From a phage: a stretch of DNA of 48,147 bases. The notes beneath the pieces were generated by a model. The model ran no database searches, had not been told where the DNA came from, and saw nothing but the letters and a program-made list of their open reading frames with translations. The position numbers were made by a program, and so were the translations under genes. Where the stretch lies: sequence record PV636260.1; one strand, written 5' to 3'. Below, one piece after another: positions 1 to 24,495 of the stretch (position 1 is its first letter; each line of letters starts with the position of its first letter).

Positions 1-127
1 ACGACTGGTCTATTTATAAAAATGTAGACTCTGAGCCGCCAAGCGGTTCCGATTCTTCAGGCGGCAGGATTGATTCAAAATTCAAGGTTGGTGAAGTTGA
101 TAAGTACAGATCCTCTTTCGAATTGCA
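1..127. repeat. 127-bp terminal direct duplication (identical to 48021-48147); circular closure or assembly overlap
   Basis: Positions 1-127 match 48021-48147 base for base; an ORF reads continuously across the junction. Confidence 0.9.
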
Positions 128-899
128 GGGAGGTAATGAAATAGATATATGGACAAGGATAACAACAATCAATGACAGATATAAGCAGGGCGCGGCAACG
201 TGGGATTTCAAACTGGACGGAAAGTTGATTTTTAACAAGGGTCTAACACCAAATGCAACTGGATATGCTCCAGGTAATACCTATTTGACATTGGCTAACA
301 CATGGATGAGTTCTTCGTACAGCGGTTATATTGGTCTAGTTGGTGGCGGCGTTGGTTTATCCAACGGCGGTTGGAGGAATTTTATCTCTCTTGGTTCGCT
401 TATTTTTCCAGGTAGTTCTCACCCCGTGGCGGTAATATCTCAGGTGTACGATTATGATATAGCTTCAGGTAATCAGCCAAACGGTGACATTGTAAGGAAT
501 ACATCGTTCAACGCTGAGAGTTACGACATAACGTTTGGGAATAACTCAGGTACTGTCAACTATATATTTTCCAAGTCTCCAGTGTCAGATGAGAGACTTA
601 AAAGCGACATAAAGGATATTGAAACAAGATTGGCGCTTGACAATTTGATGAAAATGAAATACCGATCATTCACATACAATTATGACAAGGAGAAAACTGT
701 AAGGAGAGGGTTCATAGCTCAACAACTTATGAGCATAGATAGTCAGTACGTTAGAAAGTACGGAAATATGAATGGAGAAGATTACACGCTATCACTGGAT
801 GAGAATGTTCTTTTGCTTGACGCTATAGCTGCGATACAGGAGCTTTCAAAGCAAGTATCTTCTCTAAAAGAAGAAATAAAATCACTTAAACAATCATAA
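1..899 (+). CDS. tail fiber protein, C-terminal part (intramolecular chaperone / peptidase S74-like domain); 5' part is 47072..48147
   Basis: In frame with 47072.. across the junction; C-terminus SDERLKSDIKDIE...AIAAIQELSKQVSSLKEEIKSLKQ resembles the autoproteolytic chaperone domain of phage tail fibers/endosialidases. Confidence 0.8.
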   Translation, partial: DWSIYKNVDSEPPSGSDSSGGRIDSKFKVGEVDKYRSSFELQGGNEIDIWTRITTINDRYKQGAATWDFKLDGKLIFNKGLTPNATGYAPGNTYLTLANTWMSSSYSGYIGLVGGGVGLSNGGWRNFISLGSLIFPGSSHPVAVISQVYDYDIASGNQPNGDIVRNTSFNAESYDITFGNNSGTVNYIFSKSPVSDERLKSDIKDIETRLALDNLMKMKYRSFTYNYDKEKTVRRGFIAQQLMSIDSQYVRKYGNMNGEDYTLSLDENVLLLDAIAAIQELSKQVSSLKEEIKSLKQS

Positions 900-16944: not shown

Positions 16945-16972
16945 TAAAAAAAGGCGCATTAAGCGCCTTGTT
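16945..16972 (-). terminator. intrinsic terminator
   Basis: AAGGCGCTTAATGCGCCTT + T7 on minus strand. Confidence 0.65.
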
Positions 16973-16974
16973 GA

Positions 16975-17265
16975 TTAATAGTATTCGCCGCCGTCTTCAA
17001 GCTCTTTTACGCTCATCTTATCCCACGGATCAGGTTTTTTAAGTTTAGCCATCTCTGCGCGGATTTCCCGGTTGGTGGCACTGTCGTCTTTTACTTCGAT
17101 TTCTTCGCGAGCAATCAAGAAACGCAGCCCGGGCAATTCAAGTGCGGATGCTGGGAGTGTCACCTCTTCATCCGGGAGAACCTTTGCGAATGAGCCATCT
17201 TCAAGACGGAACATCTGAAGCGCTACACCAACGTTTACGATAACAACAGTTTTTTCTTTAGCCAT
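16975..17265 (-). CDS. hypothetical structural protein
   Basis: RBS GGAGAAA; 96 aa between capsid and connector genes. Confidence 0.55.
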   Translation of the reverse strand: MAKEKTVVIVNVGVALQMFRLEDGSFAKVLPDEEVTLPASALELPGLRFLIAREEIEVKDDSATNREIRAEMAKLKKPDPWDKMSVKELEDGGEYY

Positions 17266-17280
17266 TTTGATTTCTCCAAT

Positions 17281-17310
17281 AAAAAAGGGACCAACTAAGT
17301 TAGTCCCTAT
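17281..17310 (-). terminator. intrinsic terminator downstream of the major capsid gene
   Basis: GGGACTAACTTAGTTGGTCCC + T6 on minus strand. Confidence 0.65.
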
Positions 17311-17314
17311 AATA

Positions 17315-18274
17315 TTACACGCCAGTGATTAAGACAATAGTCATCGGACGATAAATTGTAAGGCCAGTACACTTGGAGGTGCAAGGCACTTTAAAGTGAA
17401 GGTCTTTCGGCTGCGCTGGCAGCATGTTAAATGCTTCCGGGATTTCGATGGACATATTCATCGGATTTTTTTCGTACACCAGTACGCCTTTAGTCCCCGC
17501 ACCGTCGATATCTTCAAGCTCTGCGATAGAGTCGATTTCGATACCAGCATTCTGAGACTTGAAATAGTCCAGGTAAGACATGGTAGTTTCAGGCATACGG
17601 ATCGCCAGAACCTTACGCATGGACGGCGGGATCAGAATGTTGGTTGCACGATGCTGACCGCGAGTAATCGTCTCGATGGTTTCGATTGCCTGAGTCAATT
17701 CAGCTTCTGCCGTTTCCGGTTTCTGAGTTGCGCCATCCATCCACTTACCGGAGGTAATTTTGGTGATGTTCGGATGATTGAACACGGACACGATCTTGTG
17801 CGGCGCGGAACCTTTGAACACCAGACGGTTAACCAGTTGGTCATGCGCTAACTGACATGCACTTGCCTTACGAGTTGACAGTGGGCGACCAGTTGCCTGA
17901 CCCGCTTTGATTTCGTCGATTGAGATCAGATACGCGTTACCCAAACGGAACACTTTACCGAACTCAGAAGTACCCAGGGCATCAACAAGCGGCAGGTCGT
18001 CGGTGTAGTCCGCGATAATCTGAGCCGTGCCAACCTTATCAAAGGTCATGTATTCGAACGTCTTATCAGTCGGAGAAAGATCGGTTGTAACCGGGAATAC
18101 GCGTAGAGCGGAGCCGACCGGGTAGTCTTCTTCATAGGACTGGCTTTTAATGCGGTGTAGTTCCTGAGCGGTCCAGATACCCATTGTTGCGGCTGCATCC
18201 TGTTTTACGCCAGCCTGGATCAGATACATTTCAACATTGCTTTTATCTGCTTCATCAAATTTTTTAGTAGTCAT
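17315..18274 (-). CDS. major capsid protein
   Basis: RBS GGAGAAG; 319 aa; flanked by strong terminators; position after scaffold/decoration genes. Confidence 0.8.
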   Translation of the reverse strand: MTTKKFDEADKSNVEMYLIQAGVKQDAAATMGIWTAQELHRIKSQSYEEDYPVGSALRVFPVTTDLSPTDKTFEYMTFDKVGTAQIIADYTDDLPLVDALGTSEFGKVFRLGNAYLISIDEIKAGQATGRPLSTRKASACQLAHDQLVNRLVFKGSAPHKIVSVFNHPNITKITSGKWMDGATQKPETAEAELTQAIETIETITRGQHRATNILIPPSMRKVLAIRMPETTMSYLDYFKSQNAGIEIDSIAELEDIDGAGTKGVLVYEKNPMNMSIEIPEAFNMLPAQPKDLHFKVPCTSKCTGLTIYRPMTIVLITGV

Positions 18275-18295
18275 GATTACTTCTCCGTAGTTAAT

Positions 18296-18325
18296 AAAAA
18301 AGCCGTGATTATGTTCACGGCTTCA
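18296..18325 (-). terminator. intrinsic terminator immediately upstream of the major capsid gene
   Basis: AGCCGTGAACATAATCACGGCT + T6 on minus strand. Confidence 0.65.
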
Positions 18326-18328
18326 ATA

Positions 18329-18348
18329 ATAGCACTTTTTGTTAAAGC
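18329..18348 (+). promoter_or_regulatory. copy of the repeated element (ATAGCACTTTTTGTTAAAGC), plus-oriented
   Basis: Sequence match; lies between decoration gene stop and capsid terminator. Confidence 0.4.
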
Positions 18349-18365
18349 GTCAAAGTGTTTTTATG

Positions 18366-19133
18366 TTATGCATCAACCTCTGGCTCTGGCACTGCTTCTA
18401 CGCGATAAGCAATGGTTGCCGTCGTCTTGCTGGCATCGTTAGCCGTCCATGTGATATTGAAATCACCGACCGATTCTCCACCAGCAGGAGTTACAAGACC
18501 TGAGTCAGGATCGATAGTAGCGATGTTGGTGGCGTCAATTGACCACTTGCCAGTTTTATCATCAGCGTTCACAGGAAGAACATTAGCTACGCACTGAATC
18601 GTAACATTGTTCGGCTGAGGACTTTCCTTGTCGGTAGTGATCGTAGCTGATTCAACAAGAACAACTGGAGGTGGTGGCGGTGGGACGATGAAAGCATTTT
18701 GTTTCACCTGAACCTCAATGATGTAGCCGTCTTCATGCTTAACAAATCCACCAGCGAAGGTCCAACCTGCGGAACCAGATCCACCAGTAACAACGCCACC
18801 AGATCCAAATTGCAACTTTGAGAATAAGTCGGGAGCCTCATCAAGAGAAGTAAGCGTCCACATGCGACCGTGAGAAACTACGTTGCACACTTCGCCGTCT
18901 AAGATTTTACCGCTCAGGTGTTCATATTGAGAACGGAAAGCGATACCGTAAGGAGTCCCGCCATCAGAAAGTACTTTGACGACTTTCACACCATCAACGA
19001 TGCCGACAACCTGAACCGCCGCGCCGAACTCAATGTCACCTTGAGCCACACAAGCGCCATCAATATTGTAGGTTGAAGTATCAGAAAGATTTCCCGGACA
19101 CGCCGGGCGCAACATTAAATTTTCGTAAGCCAT
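18366..19133 (-). CDS. head decoration-like protein with C-terminal Ig-like (Big_2-type) domain
   Basis: N-terminal 150 aa paralogous to 19196..19672 (DTSxYNIDGACV...GAAVQVV...); PPPPPP linker then beta-rich domain. Confidence 0.65.
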   Translation of the reverse strand: MAYENLMLRPACPGNLSDTSTYNIDGACVAQGDIEFGAAVQVVGIVDGVKVVKVLSDGGTPYGIAFRSQYEHLSGKILDGEVCNVVSHGRMWTLTSLDEAPDLFSKLQFGSGGVVTGGSGSAGWTFAGGFVKHEDGYIIEVQVKQNAFIVPPPPPPVVLVESATITTDKESPQPNNVTIQCVANVLPVNADDKTGKWSIDATNIATIDPDSGLVTPAGGESVGDFNITWTANDASKTTATIAYRVEAVPEPEVDA

Positions 19134-19148
19134 AATGATTTCTCCATA

Positions 19149-19182
19149 AAAAAAGGACTATCCAAAAAAAGGATAGTCCCCA
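19149..19182 (-). terminator. intrinsic terminator between the two decoration paralogs
   Basis: AGGACTATCC-T7-GGATAGTCCT + T7. Confidence 0.6.
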
Positions 19183-19195
19183 TATTAAACGCTAA

Positions 19196-19672
19196 TTACA
19201 GTTGATGCAACTGAACCTCAACAAGCTGAATATCTTTGTATTTAGTCCAACCGCCAGCGTAGGTCCAGGTTGTTTCGATCGTGCCATCAGATTTTTCCTG
19301 ACCATCAACATCAAGTTTAACGGCAGAGCCGAAAGTTGGTGCTTCGGTGGATTTGGAAAGCATCCATACTCGACCTGAAGTCATCACGTTGATAGCGCCG
19401 CCATCTTCGTAAATCATCTGATTTTGAGCGTTAACAGTCTGCCAGTGAGAACGGATTGCCACGCCGTAAGGAGTGGTTCCGGTAGTAAGAGCCTTAACCA
19501 ACTTATGACCATCAACCGCCTGAGCTTGAACAACTTGTACGGCAGCGCCAACAAGAACATCACCTTCATTAACGACACAAGCGCCGTCAATATTGTACTT
19601 TGAAGTATCCGCAACCATACCCGGAAGCGCAATCGCCATATCTCGCTGATAAGATGCATTAATTTGTGCCAT
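19196..19672 (-). CDS. head decoration-like protein
   Basis: RBS AGGGGAAA; paralog of the N-terminal domain of 18366..19133. Confidence 0.65.
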   Translation of the reverse strand: MAQINASYQRDMAIALPGMVADTSKYNIDGACVVNEGDVLVGAAVQVVQAQAVDGHKLVKALTTGTTPYGVAIRSHWQTVNAQNQMIYEDGGAINVMTSGRVWMLSKSTEAPTFGSAVKLDVDGQEKSDGTIETTWTYAGGWTKYKDIQLVEVQLHQL

Positions 19673-19683
19673 GATATTTCCCC

Positions 19684-20796
19684 TTACATTACTTTGCTTA
19701 AACGTGAATTTGGCGTAACAGGCGCGGCGTCGTTTTTCTCTTCCGGCTTACCGCCTTCGATAGAGTCGCCTTTTACTGCTTTACGCTGAATAGCCATGAT
19801 ATCAGAATCTTTAGCAACATCAAACATAGCGTCGATATATGCGTCTGATTTTTCACTAACATCTTTATCAAGCATGGCTTTAACTACGGCAATCTTGACG
19901 TCTTTGATATCAAGACCATCATGTTTGACGCCTGCGGTTTCTGCTACTGCGGTAACTTCTGCGCGTGCGGCGGCATCAGCTTTTTGCTTCTCTACTTCAG
20001 CCTTCACAAGTTCCGGCAGAGAGTCAACCTTAACCTTCAGCGCATCGCGCTCAGCTTCGAAGCCATCAGCTTTCCCCTGAATGGTTGCAATCTGCGCGGT
20101 TAATTTTTCGATATGGTTCGCAACGTCTTCGGTTACTTCCACATCAACTGAGTCGATCTTAATTTTTTTCATTTGCTTGTCCTCGTTAGTTAATTGAACG
20201 TTATTATCATACGGGAACTCCTGTTCGGCATCAAGATTTAATTTAGCAATTCCCGCGCGACCTTTGAAAACAAGTGCGATATGGTTGACCTTGATATTAG
20301 TCTGTACCGCGTCAAATTTCACCCAGCCTTCAGGTGGCGCTTCGTCCTGTTTCATATCCTCTTCGAAGATATATTCTCCAGTCTCATTTGAACCCCATCC
20401 CGGTTTATCAATATCTACTGACGTGTAGCCAACAGATAATTCACCAGCTTCTTTTGCTTTAGCCTTGCTGATCGCGTAGTCGCTGTAAATGCTTAAAGGG
20501 ACTTCAACTCCAACACCTGAAGCAATACCAGCGCCAGCGCACGAACCTACAACAACGTCCTTAGCATTTTGGGGAGTCACCGTTACGTGACCGACTGTGA
20601 TCGGCTTGCCTGCAAAACTTTGCAAGGAATCTTGCTTGAAAACTTCGGACGCCGGACGGAACTCAACTCGATCGCCGTGCGGCGTTTTGTAAACCTGAGC
20701 GCCGATTCGCGCCACTATTGGGCGGTCAACTAAAAAACCGTTATCATCAAAGTGCGCCTTGATTTTTACTGAATCGAATCTTTGCTTTGCCTTCAT
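19684..20796 (-). CDS. scaffolding protein (possibly with N-terminal prohead protease-like domain)
   Basis: Start at ATG 20796 after CAGGAGA; Ala/Lys/Glu-rich coiled-coil C-terminal half; position. Confidence 0.6.
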   Translation of the reverse strand: MKAKQRFDSVKIKAHFDDNGFLVDRPIVARIGAQVYKTPHGDRVEFRPASEVFKQDSLQSFAGKPITVGHVTVTPQNAKDVVVGSCAGAGIASGVGVEVPLSIYSDYAISKAKAKEAGELSVGYTSVDIDKPGWGSNETGEYIFEEDMKQDEAPPEGWVKFDAVQTNIKVNHIALVFKGRAGIAKLNLDAEQEFPYDNNVQLTNEDKQMKKIKIDSVDVEVTEDVANHIEKLTAQIATIQGKADGFEAERDALKVKVDSLPELVKAEVEKQKADAAARAEVTAVAETAGVKHDGLDIKDVKIAVVKAMLDKDVSEKSDAYIDAMFDVAKDSDIMAIQRKAVKGDSIEGGKPEEKNDAAPVTPNSRLSKVM

Positions 20797-20798
20797 TT

Positions 20799-21560
20799 TT
20801 AATCTCCTGTAGAAAAGTCTGGAACAGCCCAACAGCGGCAATTGTATTCCTCACCCGGGAATACGTGATCGGAATCTACCGCTATGCGCTTACCTTCCCA
20901 TCTTACATGTTTTTCACGTTCACGTAAATCCATCACCCCACGCCAGAAATAGTAAGAGACTCCAGCGTCTTTTATGCGCTGACGCATTAGTCTACTGTTC
21001 CAGGTTCCAACAATTCCCGACGCTCTATTTTTGGCCCAATTCCGGTAAACACCAAATCGCTCATTAGCAAGTTCAACAACAAAATCCTTGCTTTTACCCT
21101 GACCGGATGCAGCACGAAGTTTATCAGTGAAATCAGTAACCATGTTGGCAGCAAATTTCCTGATAGAAGTAGTCACCTGCGATCGCCACAGATTATATTG
21201 TCCTGAGTACCAGCTTTCGGCAGCGGCAGGACCAATCAGGGCAAGTAGCATTACGGCTTGATTCTTCTTACCTCCAGCATTTCGAGCTATTCGCAACCAC
21301 TGCTTAGAGTTGAATTTATATATAGTTAGCGCAACGGATGATAGAGAACCAATAATCGGAGCGATGAGTGATTCAACGTAATCAAGCAATGACCTTTCTG
21401 TCTGATCTATCTCTTCGTCGGTAGCATCAAATTTCATCGGCTTTAATTCGTCACGCATTTTTTCAGTTAGTTTGGCTGCAACATCCTGTAGGGAGCGCGA
21501 CATTGCGCGCTCGCTCATTTCAGGATAGCGCCACTGTGTTGCAACGCCATTAATTTTCAT
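20799..21560 (-). CDS. head morphogenesis protein (Mu F / SPP1 gp7-like)
   Basis: RBS GGGGAGAAG; position after portal. Confidence 0.6.
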   Translation of the reverse strand: MKINGVATQWRYPEMSERAMSRSLQDVAAKLTEKMRDELKPMKFDATDEEIDQTERSLLDYVESLIAPIIGSLSSVALTIYKFNSKQWLRIARNAGGKKNQAVMLLALIGPAAAESWYSGQYNLWRSQVTTSIRKFAANMVTDFTDKLRAASGQGKSKDFVVELANERFGVYRNWAKNRASGIVGTWNSRLMRQRIKDAGVSYYFWRGVMDLREREKHVRWEGKRIAVDSDHVFPGEEYNCRCWAVPDFSTGD

Positions 21561-22833
21561 CTTCTAACTTCTCCCCTAATCCCGGTTCCGGTTCGGTTGT
21601 TTCTTCCTGTTCGCGAATGTTGATGTTATTACCATCCTTGAGTTTGAACTCAGGGGCAATGGATCGCAACGTGTCTCGAGCTTCTTCCAGATCGATGATT
21701 TGCTCAGTGATAGCTTTCGTGACTGACTCAACGTTATTCTTCGTGATCTCTGATTCCTCTTTCTTACTCGGAACAGACAAAGGCTCAAACTCGATCGACC
21801 ACTCTTGCTCGTCAACAATGAACGGCAGCAAGAACTCAAGAAGAGGCCTGTAATCTTCCTCACGCTTACGATCTACCAGCTTATAGAAAGTCTCAAGCGC
21901 TGTGTTTTGGCTCGCTGATACGCCGCCTACGTTCTTATTTTTGATGATAATCTCATGAATCCCTGAAAGGGAAACAATACGATCCATCTTGCTCGATAAG
22001 AACTCAGGCACTCCGCTGATATCAGAGTTTAGAACATCGTATTCTTCCGTCTCAGCATCGATACCGATCGCACGGCCTACTCCGGAGTTGTCATCAACCT
22101 GAGCAAGTCGCAGGCGCGCAGCATACTGAGCATCGTCATCATCGCACATTTCGGCAAGACCTTTGACCTTCCATACCGCCTGTTGCTTACGCCGCAGGAT
22201 CTGAGTCGCAAGTGATTCGCAATAGTCGTAGTCGCAGATTGCATCAATCAGTGACTTATTCAAAACTGAAGCACCCCACCCCTGATTCTGCTTGCGAATC
22301 TGAGGGGTTACTCGCTCACCATCAGCAATAAAAATTCTTGTGTGGTGGATTAAGTAAGGTTGAAGATTATCGCCAGGAGATACCTTGTATATCTCAGGCT
22401 CACCATAGCGAGGCGATCGAGCGTTGGTTACTCTCTTTTCAACGGTGATTGCAAATCGATCGTAAACACGCACGCCCTCAAGTTTAGCGCCAGGTTTAAC
22501 GGGGCTGGTTAGCATTCTGTTGTCTTTGATGATTGCCACAATAGCAGCCCCACCGTATAGTCTCGCCCAGCAAAGAACGTCAACCAAGCTAGAATCAATT
22601 TTGTAACTATCCCACAGAGACTTGAACTCTTTTTCATCCTTGACGCCTGACATTTTAAATCCAGCCGTCACCATCTCTTCCGGGATAACATCCACAATTC
22701 GCTTCGCGGTTGCGTTGTCGTTGTAGAAAGATCCTACGTGATATGATGCATCAGACATAAAGAATGGCTTAGGCGATCCGTCTGCACCGCCGTTAAAGAT
22801 ATCGTTATATCCATCATGCTTAACAATTTTCAT
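21550..22833 (-). CDS. portal protein
   Basis: Start at ATG 22833 after GGAGGAAAC; 427 aa, acidic C-terminus; position after TerL. Confidence 0.8.
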   Translation of the reverse strand: MKIVKHDGYNDIFNGGADGSPKPFFMSDASYHVGSFYNDNATAKRIVDVIPEEMVTAGFKMSGVKDEKEFKSLWDSYKIDSSLVDVLCWARLYGGAAIVAIIKDNRMLTSPVKPGAKLEGVRVYDRFAITVEKRVTNARSPRYGEPEIYKVSPGDNLQPYLIHHTRIFIADGERVTPQIRKQNQGWGASVLNKSLIDAICDYDYCESLATQILRRKQQAVWKVKGLAEMCDDDDAQYAARLRLAQVDDNSGVGRAIGIDAETEEYDVLNSDISGVPEFLSSKMDRIVSLSGIHEIIIKNKNVGGVSASQNTALETFYKLVDRKREEDYRPLLEFLLPFIVDEQEWSIEFEPLSVPSKKEESEITKNNVESVTKAITEQIIDLEEARDTLRSIAPEFKLKDGNNINIREQEETTEPEPGLGEKLEDEN

Positions 22834-22844
22834 GTTTCCTCCAA

Positions 22845-22875
22845 TAAAAAAGGCCGTCAATTGACAGCCTTGATT
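22845..22875 (-). terminator. terminator-like hairpin between TerL and portal
   Basis: AAGGCTGTCAATTGACGGCCTT + T6. Confidence 0.5.
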
Positions 22876-22887
22876 ATATCTCATTTA

Positions 22888-24456
22888 TTACCGCTTAACC
22901 ATCCCGGCGAGCCGCTTCATTCTCTCGATAGGATCATCAATGGTCAGCAATTCGATGTTCGCCGCATCCATGAAGTTATCGACGATATCATCATGCGGAT
23001 GGGTGTCATCGTAAGTGAAGGCGCTGTGTTCAGCGATAATTTCAGCAAGCATGGGGTGCTCTTCTGGCAGAACCACACGCCCGGCTTTAATAACTGGCTG
23101 AGCATCCATAGCGCGGGTAACTTTGTCTTTGTTACGCTGCAACGGAGTGATAGAGATCGGAGTCTTTTTCCTGAGGTTCTGTATAAGGCCCGTACCGCTC
23201 GCTTTATCTTCCACGTAGATTTTTCGAAGCACGCCCATTGATTTATTGTGTCTCCATGCCTGATTAACGAAAGCGGTAAATTGTTTCTCCATATCCGGCG
23301 CTTCCCACTTACCGCGAATGCCGTCAATAAAGTAAACCTTATCGTTCTTCTTACCCCACAAGCAAAAGACTGTGTAGTCGTTTAGCTCGCCTGTCTTCTG
23401 AGCGGTATCGGCAGTGATGAAACGGTAGTCGTACTTACCCGGATCTGGTTCGTCAGCGTCAAGGCTGCTGCCGTAATAAGTCCACCATTCCGAGTTAAAC
23501 ACGGAGCCACCAAGCGCGATCGGCTTCTGCTGATACTGAGAGTCAAAGGTGTACTGGTCAGCTTCGCGAAGCGCTAACAGGTCATGTACACTTTCCTTAC
23601 TGGGCCAGAACGAGTAATGCTTGACGCCATCAAGTTCGACATACTCAGACGATAAAACGTCGCGCTCGAAGTAAGGTTGTAACCAGTCAGGAAGCGTCTT
23701 TCCGTATTCTTCCGTGACCAGCGCCGGGATCGAGATCTGGTCAAACTCAATACCCATACCTCCATTCATCATAAACCAAGTTGAATCCTGCGCGTGCAGT
23801 CGCTGCTGGATTGCGATAATCGGCGTCTCGTTGTGCATACGACGGGATCGTATGGTGTTCTTCAATAGCATGTGAGTACGCTCACGCTTAACCTTTGAGA
23901 ACATATCGTCAGGCTTGTCTATATCGTCGAGCATTACCATCCCGGAGAATCCCGGCATCATATAGCCACCACGCGAACCTGTGATTCGACCTCCGGCTGC
24001 TGCGGATATTAGCTCGAACCAGACCTTGCCATCTTCGTTAAGAACTTGCATCTCTTCATCTTTCGATGTGCCGAACTTACAGGGCCACAACTCTTGGAAC
24101 TCTTTGCTGCTGATAATCTCACGAACTCGCTTACTGTTACGCTTTACAAGGCTATCTGCAAATGAAACGTTAAGGTTTCGTACCTTCTTGCACTTGAGCA
24201 TTGCGTAAACAGGAAGGTGAATTGAGAACACCTCGGTTTTACCCGAACCTGGCGTGACGTTAAAGATAGTGTTCCCGCGTCGACCTGCAATTATTTCCTC
24301 CACTTCGTGACATAGGTAAAGGTGATGCCAGTTAGGCTGGAACTGCTGCGCCTGCATAAGCTGGAACCAGATCCGAATCATTTTTTCGAAATTGGCCTCG
24401 CTCATTTTCTTGATCGCTAACTTCTGCGTTGCGTTAAGGTCTTCCCATTGAATCAT
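22888..24456 (-). CDS. terminase large subunit
   Basis: Start at ATG 24456 after GGGAGAC; Walker A-like TPGSGKT; 522 aa. Confidence 0.85.
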   Translation of the reverse strand: MIQWEDLNATQKLAIKKMSEANFEKMIRIWFQLMQAQQFQPNWHHLYLCHEVEEIIAGRRGNTIFNVTPGSGKTEVFSIHLPVYAMLKCKKVRNLNVSFADSLVKRNSKRVREIISSKEFQELWPCKFGTSKDEEMQVLNEDGKVWFELISAAAGGRITGSRGGYMMPGFSGMVMLDDIDKPDDMFSKVKRERTHMLLKNTIRSRRMHNETPIIAIQQRLHAQDSTWFMMNGGMGIEFDQISIPALVTEEYGKTLPDWLQPYFERDVLSSEYVELDGVKHYSFWPSKESVHDLLALREADQYTFDSQYQQKPIALGGSVFNSEWWTYYGSSLDADEPDPGKYDYRFITADTAQKTGELNDYTVFCLWGKKNDKVYFIDGIRGKWEAPDMEKQFTAFVNQAWRHNKSMGVLRKIYVEDKASGTGLIQNLRKKTPISITPLQRNKDKVTRAMDAQPVIKAGRVVLPEEHPMLAEIIAEHSAFTYDDTHPHDDIVDNFMDAANIELLTIDDPIERMKRLAGMVKR

Positions 24457-24495
24457 GATTAAGTCTCCCATGTGGGCGCTAGCGCGCCCGTAACG

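Follow-up and report, generated by a model that had tools for sequence, protein, structure and literature searches.

Two adjacent genes for related proteins lie between the protease gene and the major capsid protein gene of the phage DNA analysed here (sequence record PV636260.1, 48,147 nucleotides; the whole stretch is referred to below as the window). What do they encode, and what is the role of the additional domain carried by one of the two products? The original prediction, made from the sequence, described them as tandem paralogous decoration-like genes, one with an added Ig-like domain. The best explanation of the evidence as a whole is that the pair represents the orthologues of the capsid cement proteins gp49 (short) and gp48 (long) of phage T1, and we hold this identification with high confidence.

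The gene pair and the head module

The region 17300-20900 gave full-length megablast matches to Tunavirus genomes, with 94-96.5% identity among the phage genomes searched. These included Shigella phages Sfin-3 and pSf-2, Escherichia phage ADB-2, and T1, the latter being 94.3% identical to the window over 3.6 kb of DNA. The genome of pSf-2 covered 96% of the first 25 kb of the window at 93% identity. Because of these megablast matches, the window is assigned at the nucleotide level to a T1-like phage of the genus Tunavirus, family Drexlerviridae.

A siphophage-type head module occupies the minus strand from 16.9 kb to 24.5 kb. It includes the genes for the large terminase (22888-24471), portal (21550-22884), head morphogenesis protein (20799-21560), and prohead protease/scaffold of the DUF2213 type (19684..20841; Pfam PF09979, 9e-26; PHROG 530 'head maturation protease', 9.5e-110). 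[quoted passage not shown] The order runs from portal, morphogenesis protein, and protease through short and long cement proteins to the major capsid protein, and in the part from the protease/scaffold to the major capsid protein the open reading frame map of the window is the same as the annotation of T1. The protease/scaffold gene ends (stop codon at 19684) 11 nt before the start of the short cement gene, whose ribosome-binding site, AAGGGG, overlaps this stop codon.

The open reading frames of the pair have the coordinates and lengths originally given, both on the minus strand, and the homology of their products is far beyond chance: the BLASTP alignment spans residues 15-157 of the short product and 11-145 of the long product (63/143 identities, 44%; E = 2e-33). 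The motifs on which the homology had been proposed, DTSxYNIDGACV, GAAVQVV, and TPYG(I/V)A(F/I)RS, are all located within this alignment. The first ~14 residues of the short protein and the first ~10 residues of the long protein remained outside the BLASTP alignment, which fits the differing N-terminal contacts of gp49 and gp48 in T1 (Chen et al., 2025; PMC11945409).

The short protein (19196..19672) is identical over all 158 residues to a chain deposited in PDB entries 9KZJ, 9KMG, and 9KMH ('Decoration protein / cement protein II'). It passes the threshold of the Pfam family PF22758, Phage_cement (106.1 bits versus a cut-off of 27), and matches PHROG 1989 (5e-66); its sequence similarity to the 'Cement' chain 8hdt_G was weak (E = 1.4e-4).

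The long protein is composed of three parts, all read from the minus strand. The N-terminal cement domain (residues 1-149; 18687..19133), which shares the 44% identity with the short protein, also belongs to PF22758 (62.2 bits versus the same cut-off). It is followed by a PPPPPP linker (residues 151-156; 18666..18683), seen directly in the translation, as had been proposed, and by a C-terminal Ig-like display domain (residues 157-255; 18369..18665). The predicted Ig-like nature of this domain was borne out by the Pfam family Big_2 (PF02368), whose core match at residues 176-240 (nt 18414-18608) scored 33.0 bits versus a cut-off of 22.8. Further support came from PHROG 215 'structural protein with Ig domain' (3e-12), from the Ig-domain PHROGs 1280 and 341, and from a weak match of the C-terminus to 8hqz_p, a phage tail tube protein, within its Ig-like portion (E = 0.0012). 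The AlphaFold2 model of the 255-residue protein, built from the single sequence without an alignment, was unusable (pLDDT 36, pTM 0.19). Among deposited structures, the long protein matched 9KZJ_H, a 'BIG2 domain-containing protein' (E = 1e-160), and 9KMH, 'Decoration protein gp29'.

The 5' end of the window differs from this region in its coverage. An open reading frame at 123-899 (plus strand) encodes the C-terminal part of a tail-fibre-like protein, the end of which resembles an intramolecular chaperone domain (…SDERLKSDIKDIE…). The megablast match to pSf-2, the closest genome, leaves out the stretch 1-901, which may therefore be a swapped host-range module.

Correspondence to the cement proteins of T1

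The arrangement of cement proteins on the T1 capsid was determined by cryo-EM (Chen et al., 2025, Viruses 17:351; PMC11945409; PDB 9KZJ). [quoted passage not shown] Both gp49 and residues 2-153 of gp48 adopt the beta-tulip fold, as do TW1 gp56 and lambda gpD. With its N-terminal arm, gp49 enters the inner capsid surface; gp48 is found on the outside only. The C-terminal domain of gp48 is flexible and protrudes outward: residues 154-255 were not resolved beyond a weak protruding density and were modelled by AlphaFold3 only. According to the same authors, the protrusion "may assist T1 adsorption" (Chen et al., 2025; PMC11945409).

The T1 pair and the window pair are alike in gene order, in the lengths of the products (158 and 255 amino acids), in the PPPPPP linker, in the Big_2 domain, and in the intergenic terminators. 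In the T1 record AY216660, the two products carry the names 'capsid decoration protein' and 'IgG-domain-containing decoration protein'. The long protein is identical to T1 gp48 at 238 of 255 positions (93%); eight of the 17 substitutions are in the N-terminal domain (94.6% identity) and nine in the linker and C-terminal domain (91.5%). The major capsid protein, which forms the surface that the cement trimers bind, has full-length matches to the capsid chains of 9KZJ and 9KMG (E about 1e-210; 5e-210 for 9KZJ_A). Since the short protein is 100%, the long protein 93%, and the major capsid protein nearly 100% identical to their T1 counterparts, the architecture of the T1 capsid can be transferred to the window phage. 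The near-identity of these three capsid proteins suggests that 80 homotrimers and 60 heterotrimers would be present here as well. The beta-tulip fold is established by cryo-EM for the identical and 93%-identical T1 chains (Chen et al., 2025; PMC11945409) and, by the same analogy, the short protein would be the beta-tulip subunit present in all capsid trimers. The original reading of the two products as decoration proteins agrees both with this structure of their orthologues and with the PDB matches.

Chains identical or nearly identical to the window proteins occur in a second PDB deposit, 9KMG/9KMH, for which the literature search returned no relevant paper; only 9KZJ maps to the T1 study. 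A 314-residue major capsid protein in PDB entries 9n01 and 9yix also matches that of the window (E = 2e-94), and a PDB sequence search at E <= 1 gave no match between chains of these entries and the short cement protein.

The same beta-tulip class includes lambda gpD, TW1 gp56 (5WK1), and gp40 of Shigella phage Sf11. Like the T1 proteins, these form trimers at the threefold and quasi-threefold sites of a T=7 capsid with the HK97 fold. Each of them, however, is a single protein that forms homotrimers only and has no display domain, whereas T1 and the window phage possess two paralogues, which form mixed trimers in T1 and probably do so in the window phage. The GenBank record of T1 (AY216660) notes an HHpred match to TW1 5WK1; at the sequence level, our searches revealed no match of gpD or TW1 gp56 to the window cement proteins. 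Both window proteins also exceed the curated threshold of PF23982, the family of the minor capsid protein gp53 of Vibrio phage XM1, in addition to that of PF22758, which contains Pseudomonas phage E217 gp24 and cyanophage Pam3 gp6. Neither the family matches nor the literature search gave any indication of a second, Ig-bearing paralogue in E217, Pam3, or XM1. The literature search gave no further paper with a mixture of homotrimers and heterotrimers such as that of T1.

Ig-like domains held above the capsid by a capsid-anchoring N-terminal domain are also known from T4 Hoc and T5 pb10, for which a weak adhesion role has been proposed. Hoc and pb10 bind as monomers at the centres of hexamers, and their anchoring domain is unrelated to cement proteins. 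In T1, by contrast, and presumably in the window phage, the anchoring part is a paralogue of the cement protein and occupies a single place within a quasi-threefold trimer. These distinctions from gpD, gp56, and gp40 and from Hoc and pb10 have already been described for T1. The paired cement genes, including a solved structure, are likewise already known, because they were solved in a phage with identical or 93%-identical proteins; the window pair shows no qualitative difference from that of T1.

Terminators and putative promoter

The minus strand was scanned for hairpins followed by a U-tract, and the fold energies were expressed as z-scores. Four strong sites were revealed: 19181..19153 (z = -3.3), 18324..18299 (z = -3.8), 17308..17286 (z = -2.6), and 16969..16951 (z = -4.5). 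The first of these, between the short and long cement genes (19153..19181, minus strand), has an 11-bp stem, a 7-nt loop, and a T-run (-17.2 kcal/mol). The second, between the long cement gene and the gene for the major capsid protein (18299..18324, minus strand), has a 10-bp stem. The claim that each copy has its own upstream terminator was correct for the long gene, which has 19181..19153 upstream, and incorrect for the short gene, which has none; the terminator belonging to each gene is in fact located downstream of it. Correspondingly, a rho-independent terminator is annotated after each cement gene in the T1 record AY216660. A hairpin with a U-tract is present 3' of each cement gene in all seven of the other Drexlerviridae loci with the pair, where its position is kept and its stem sequence differs.

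Across 16951-19181 of the window, the genes for the short cement, long cement, major capsid, and DUF7444 proteins each have a 3' terminator of their own. Such a series of four terminators is unusually dense for a late operon.

The best promoter-like match in the region, TTGACG-N16-TATTAT with a TG extension (18326..18353, minus strand), is sigma-70-like, agrees with the consensus at 10 of 12 positions, and adjoins the 5' side of the hairpin 18324..18299. A promoter is annotated at the same place, before the capsid gene, in T1 (AY216660). T1, IME347, Kalemo, and MartyMcPhage share the motif TTTAACAAAAAGTGCTAT in the corresponding intergenic region, and variants of it occur in K50, morffagbaw, and Salmonella phage 36. 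Judged by its sequence, 18326..18353 is a putative promoter.

These elements point to a possible scheme of expression. The terminator 3' of the short gene probably reduces the transcription that reaches the long gene, in keeping with the 6:1 ratio of the two proteins. RNA started at 18353..18326 would begin within the 5' arm of the hairpin 18324..18299 and would therefore probably escape this terminator. In this way, the promoter on the 5' side of the second terminator would probably bring expression of the major capsid protein back to a high level.

Variation of the pair and role of the Ig-like domain

A tblastn search with the long protein matched 388 phage records. Two matching places per record, corresponding to both paralogues, were found in Tunavirus and close relatives, in Klebsiella phages, and in a Tlsvirus. 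Seven other Drexlerviridae loci were compared with the window, namely those of Kalemo, IME347, K50, morffagbaw, MartyMcPhage, Salmonella phage 36, and Rogue1. The short-then-long pair is present in several Drexlerviridae subfamilies, and it is the C-terminal module of the long copy that varies. The homologues in IME347, K50, and Rogue1 also pass the PF22758 threshold of 27 bits.

The long copy of T1 has the same composition as that of the window. In Escherichia phage Kalemo (locus L008, 1501-2514; PP925822.1, 14713-15726), it comprises 337 amino acids and carries PPPPPP followed by two tandem Ig-like repeats, which are 38% identical to each other. The long copy of vB_EcoS_IME347, a Badaguanvirus (locus L002, 2492-2986; NC_047960.1, 15523-16017), is 164 amino acids in length and has no Ig domain; it shows PEPEPEPE instead of PPPPPP at the linker position and ends in the acidic, PE-rich tail PPEPEPEPEQDPEEP of 14 residues. 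In Klebsiella phages K50 and morffagbaw, the Warwickvirus MartyMcPhage, and the Tlsvirus Salmonella phage 36, the long copies are 250-271 amino acids in length, and their Ig-like C-terminal regions align with the window protein. The PPPPPP-type run is present in T1 and Kalemo and is absent from these Klebsiella and Tempevirinae homologues. Enterobacteria phage vB_EcoS_Rogue1, a Rogunavirus, has a single cement gene; the slot of the long copy (locus L004, 3056-4501; JQ182736.1, 9564-11009) is occupied by a gene for a 481-residue protein with long G-X-Y repeats (Pfam Collagen, 3e-27) and no cement domain, which may be a capsid-associated fibre.

The long copy of Salmonella phage 36 (locus L006, 1492-2244; KR296690.1, 7748-8500) is peculiar in that its last ~20 residues (…MAQMMCMLLGLQMTAAALRQ) are unlike those of the K50 protein, which looks like the result of a frameshift or sequencing error. 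Also, the product names given to the head genes of this phage are clearly wrong, for example 'zonula occludens toxin' and 'SbcC-like scaffolding protein'.

With an Ig-fused cement paralogue in the heterotrimers, as suggested for the window phage, ~60 Ig-like domains would be displayed above each capsid on flexible stalks. They probably bind glycans of host or environmental surfaces weakly and reversibly. Weak adhesion is put forward here as a hypothesis and is the same speculation as that of the T1 authors (Chen et al., 2025; PMC11945409).

The long paralogue could, alternatively, be mainly structural, that is, a site-specific cement variant whose presence in the heterotrimer fits the trimer to a particular class of quasi-threefold position, with the Ig-like domain as a passive, non-adhesive passenger. 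IME347, which retains a second paralogue with only a 14-residue tail and no Ig domain, suggests that the heterotrimer may serve a purpose independent of display. The different contacts that the N-terminal arms of gp48 and gp49 make with the capsid (Chen et al., 2025; PMC11945409) point in the same direction, as does the fact that the N-terminal domains of the long copies form fast-diverging lineages of their own. Relatives in Tunavirus, Tlsvirus, Warwickvirus, and the Klebsiella phages, however, retain an Ig-like C-terminus, and Kalemo has it in duplicate, which suggests selection on the displayed module. Moreover, structural and display roles are compatible with each other. We consider this mainly structural alternative possible but rather doubtful and prefer the reading in which the displayed domain contributes weak adhesion.

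With regard to origin, the long copy may have arisen by duplication of a cement gene and subsequent fusion, via a rigid poly-proline spacer, to a Big_2 Ig-like domain, giving rise to gp48. Across the phages compared, short copies share 49-77% identity and the N-terminal domains of long copies share 32-60%; within Tunavirus, between the long copies of the window phage and Kalemo, identity is 83% in the N-terminal domain and 64% in the C-terminal part. In a crude, midpoint-rooted neighbour-joining tree of cement domains from eight phages, the short copies clustered together, and the long copies fell into two groups on long branches, one from Tunavirinae and the other from Tempevirinae/Klebsiella phages. 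This tree of eight phages does not separate one old duplication from repeated events.

That the long copies do not form one clade in the midpoint-rooted tree could also mean that the second copy was acquired horizontally from a phage with a cement-Ig fusion, with no duplication within the lineage. The N-terminal domain of the window long protein is, in agreement with this, about equally distant from the neighbouring short copy (44% identity) and from the single cement protein of Rogue1 (43%). Long-branch artefacts are, however, to be expected in such a tree because the long copies diverge faster, and the same short-then-long order with terminators recurs across several Drexlerviridae subfamilies. 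Horizontal acquisition is thus unlikely as compared with duplication and fusion. Whether duplicated or horizontally gained, both genes remain paralogous members of one family.

The notion that the genes encode scaffolding or other non-virion proteins, which is based on product names in a few GenBank records only ('scaffolding protein SbcC-like', 'putative zonula occludens toxin', 'putative scaffolding protein'), is almost certainly wrong, given that the two proteins have been modelled at the atomic level on the mature capsid of T1 (Chen et al., 2025; PMC11945409), that Pfam places both in a structural cement family, and that the scaffold/protease function belongs to the upstream DUF2213 gene. 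The labels 'scaffolding protein' and 'zonula occludens toxin' were rejected as conflicting with the T1 virion structure.

The practical value of these results is limited, as they confirm T1-type capsid decoration in the window phage. Since this decoration matches that solved for T1, the products labelled 'hypothetical protein' in Tunavirus records can be renamed 'cement protein' and 'Ig-domain cement protein'. The long paralogue offers a flexible site for C-terminal fusions and has ~60 copies on each capsid, which makes it a natural candidate for phage display. It is also a candidate for probing whether capsid Ig-like domains aid adsorption in T1-like phages.

A broader interpretation, which we offer tentatively and do not regard as the probable one, is that the slot flanked by the genes for the short cement protein and the major capsid protein is a conserved "display cassette" of the Drexlerviridae. 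It would combine a cement anchor, kept at ~1/6 of the level of the main cement protein by the intervening terminator, with exchangeable modules, and the overlapping promoter and terminator would uncouple expression of the capsid gene. The modules would comprise a single Ig domain, a pair of such domains, or an acidic tail, and in Rogunavirus the slot would hold the collagen-like fibre protein. If this interpretation is true, the long paralogue would be a natural, stoichiometry-controlled phage-display scaffold and a determinant of adhesion to the environment or the host.
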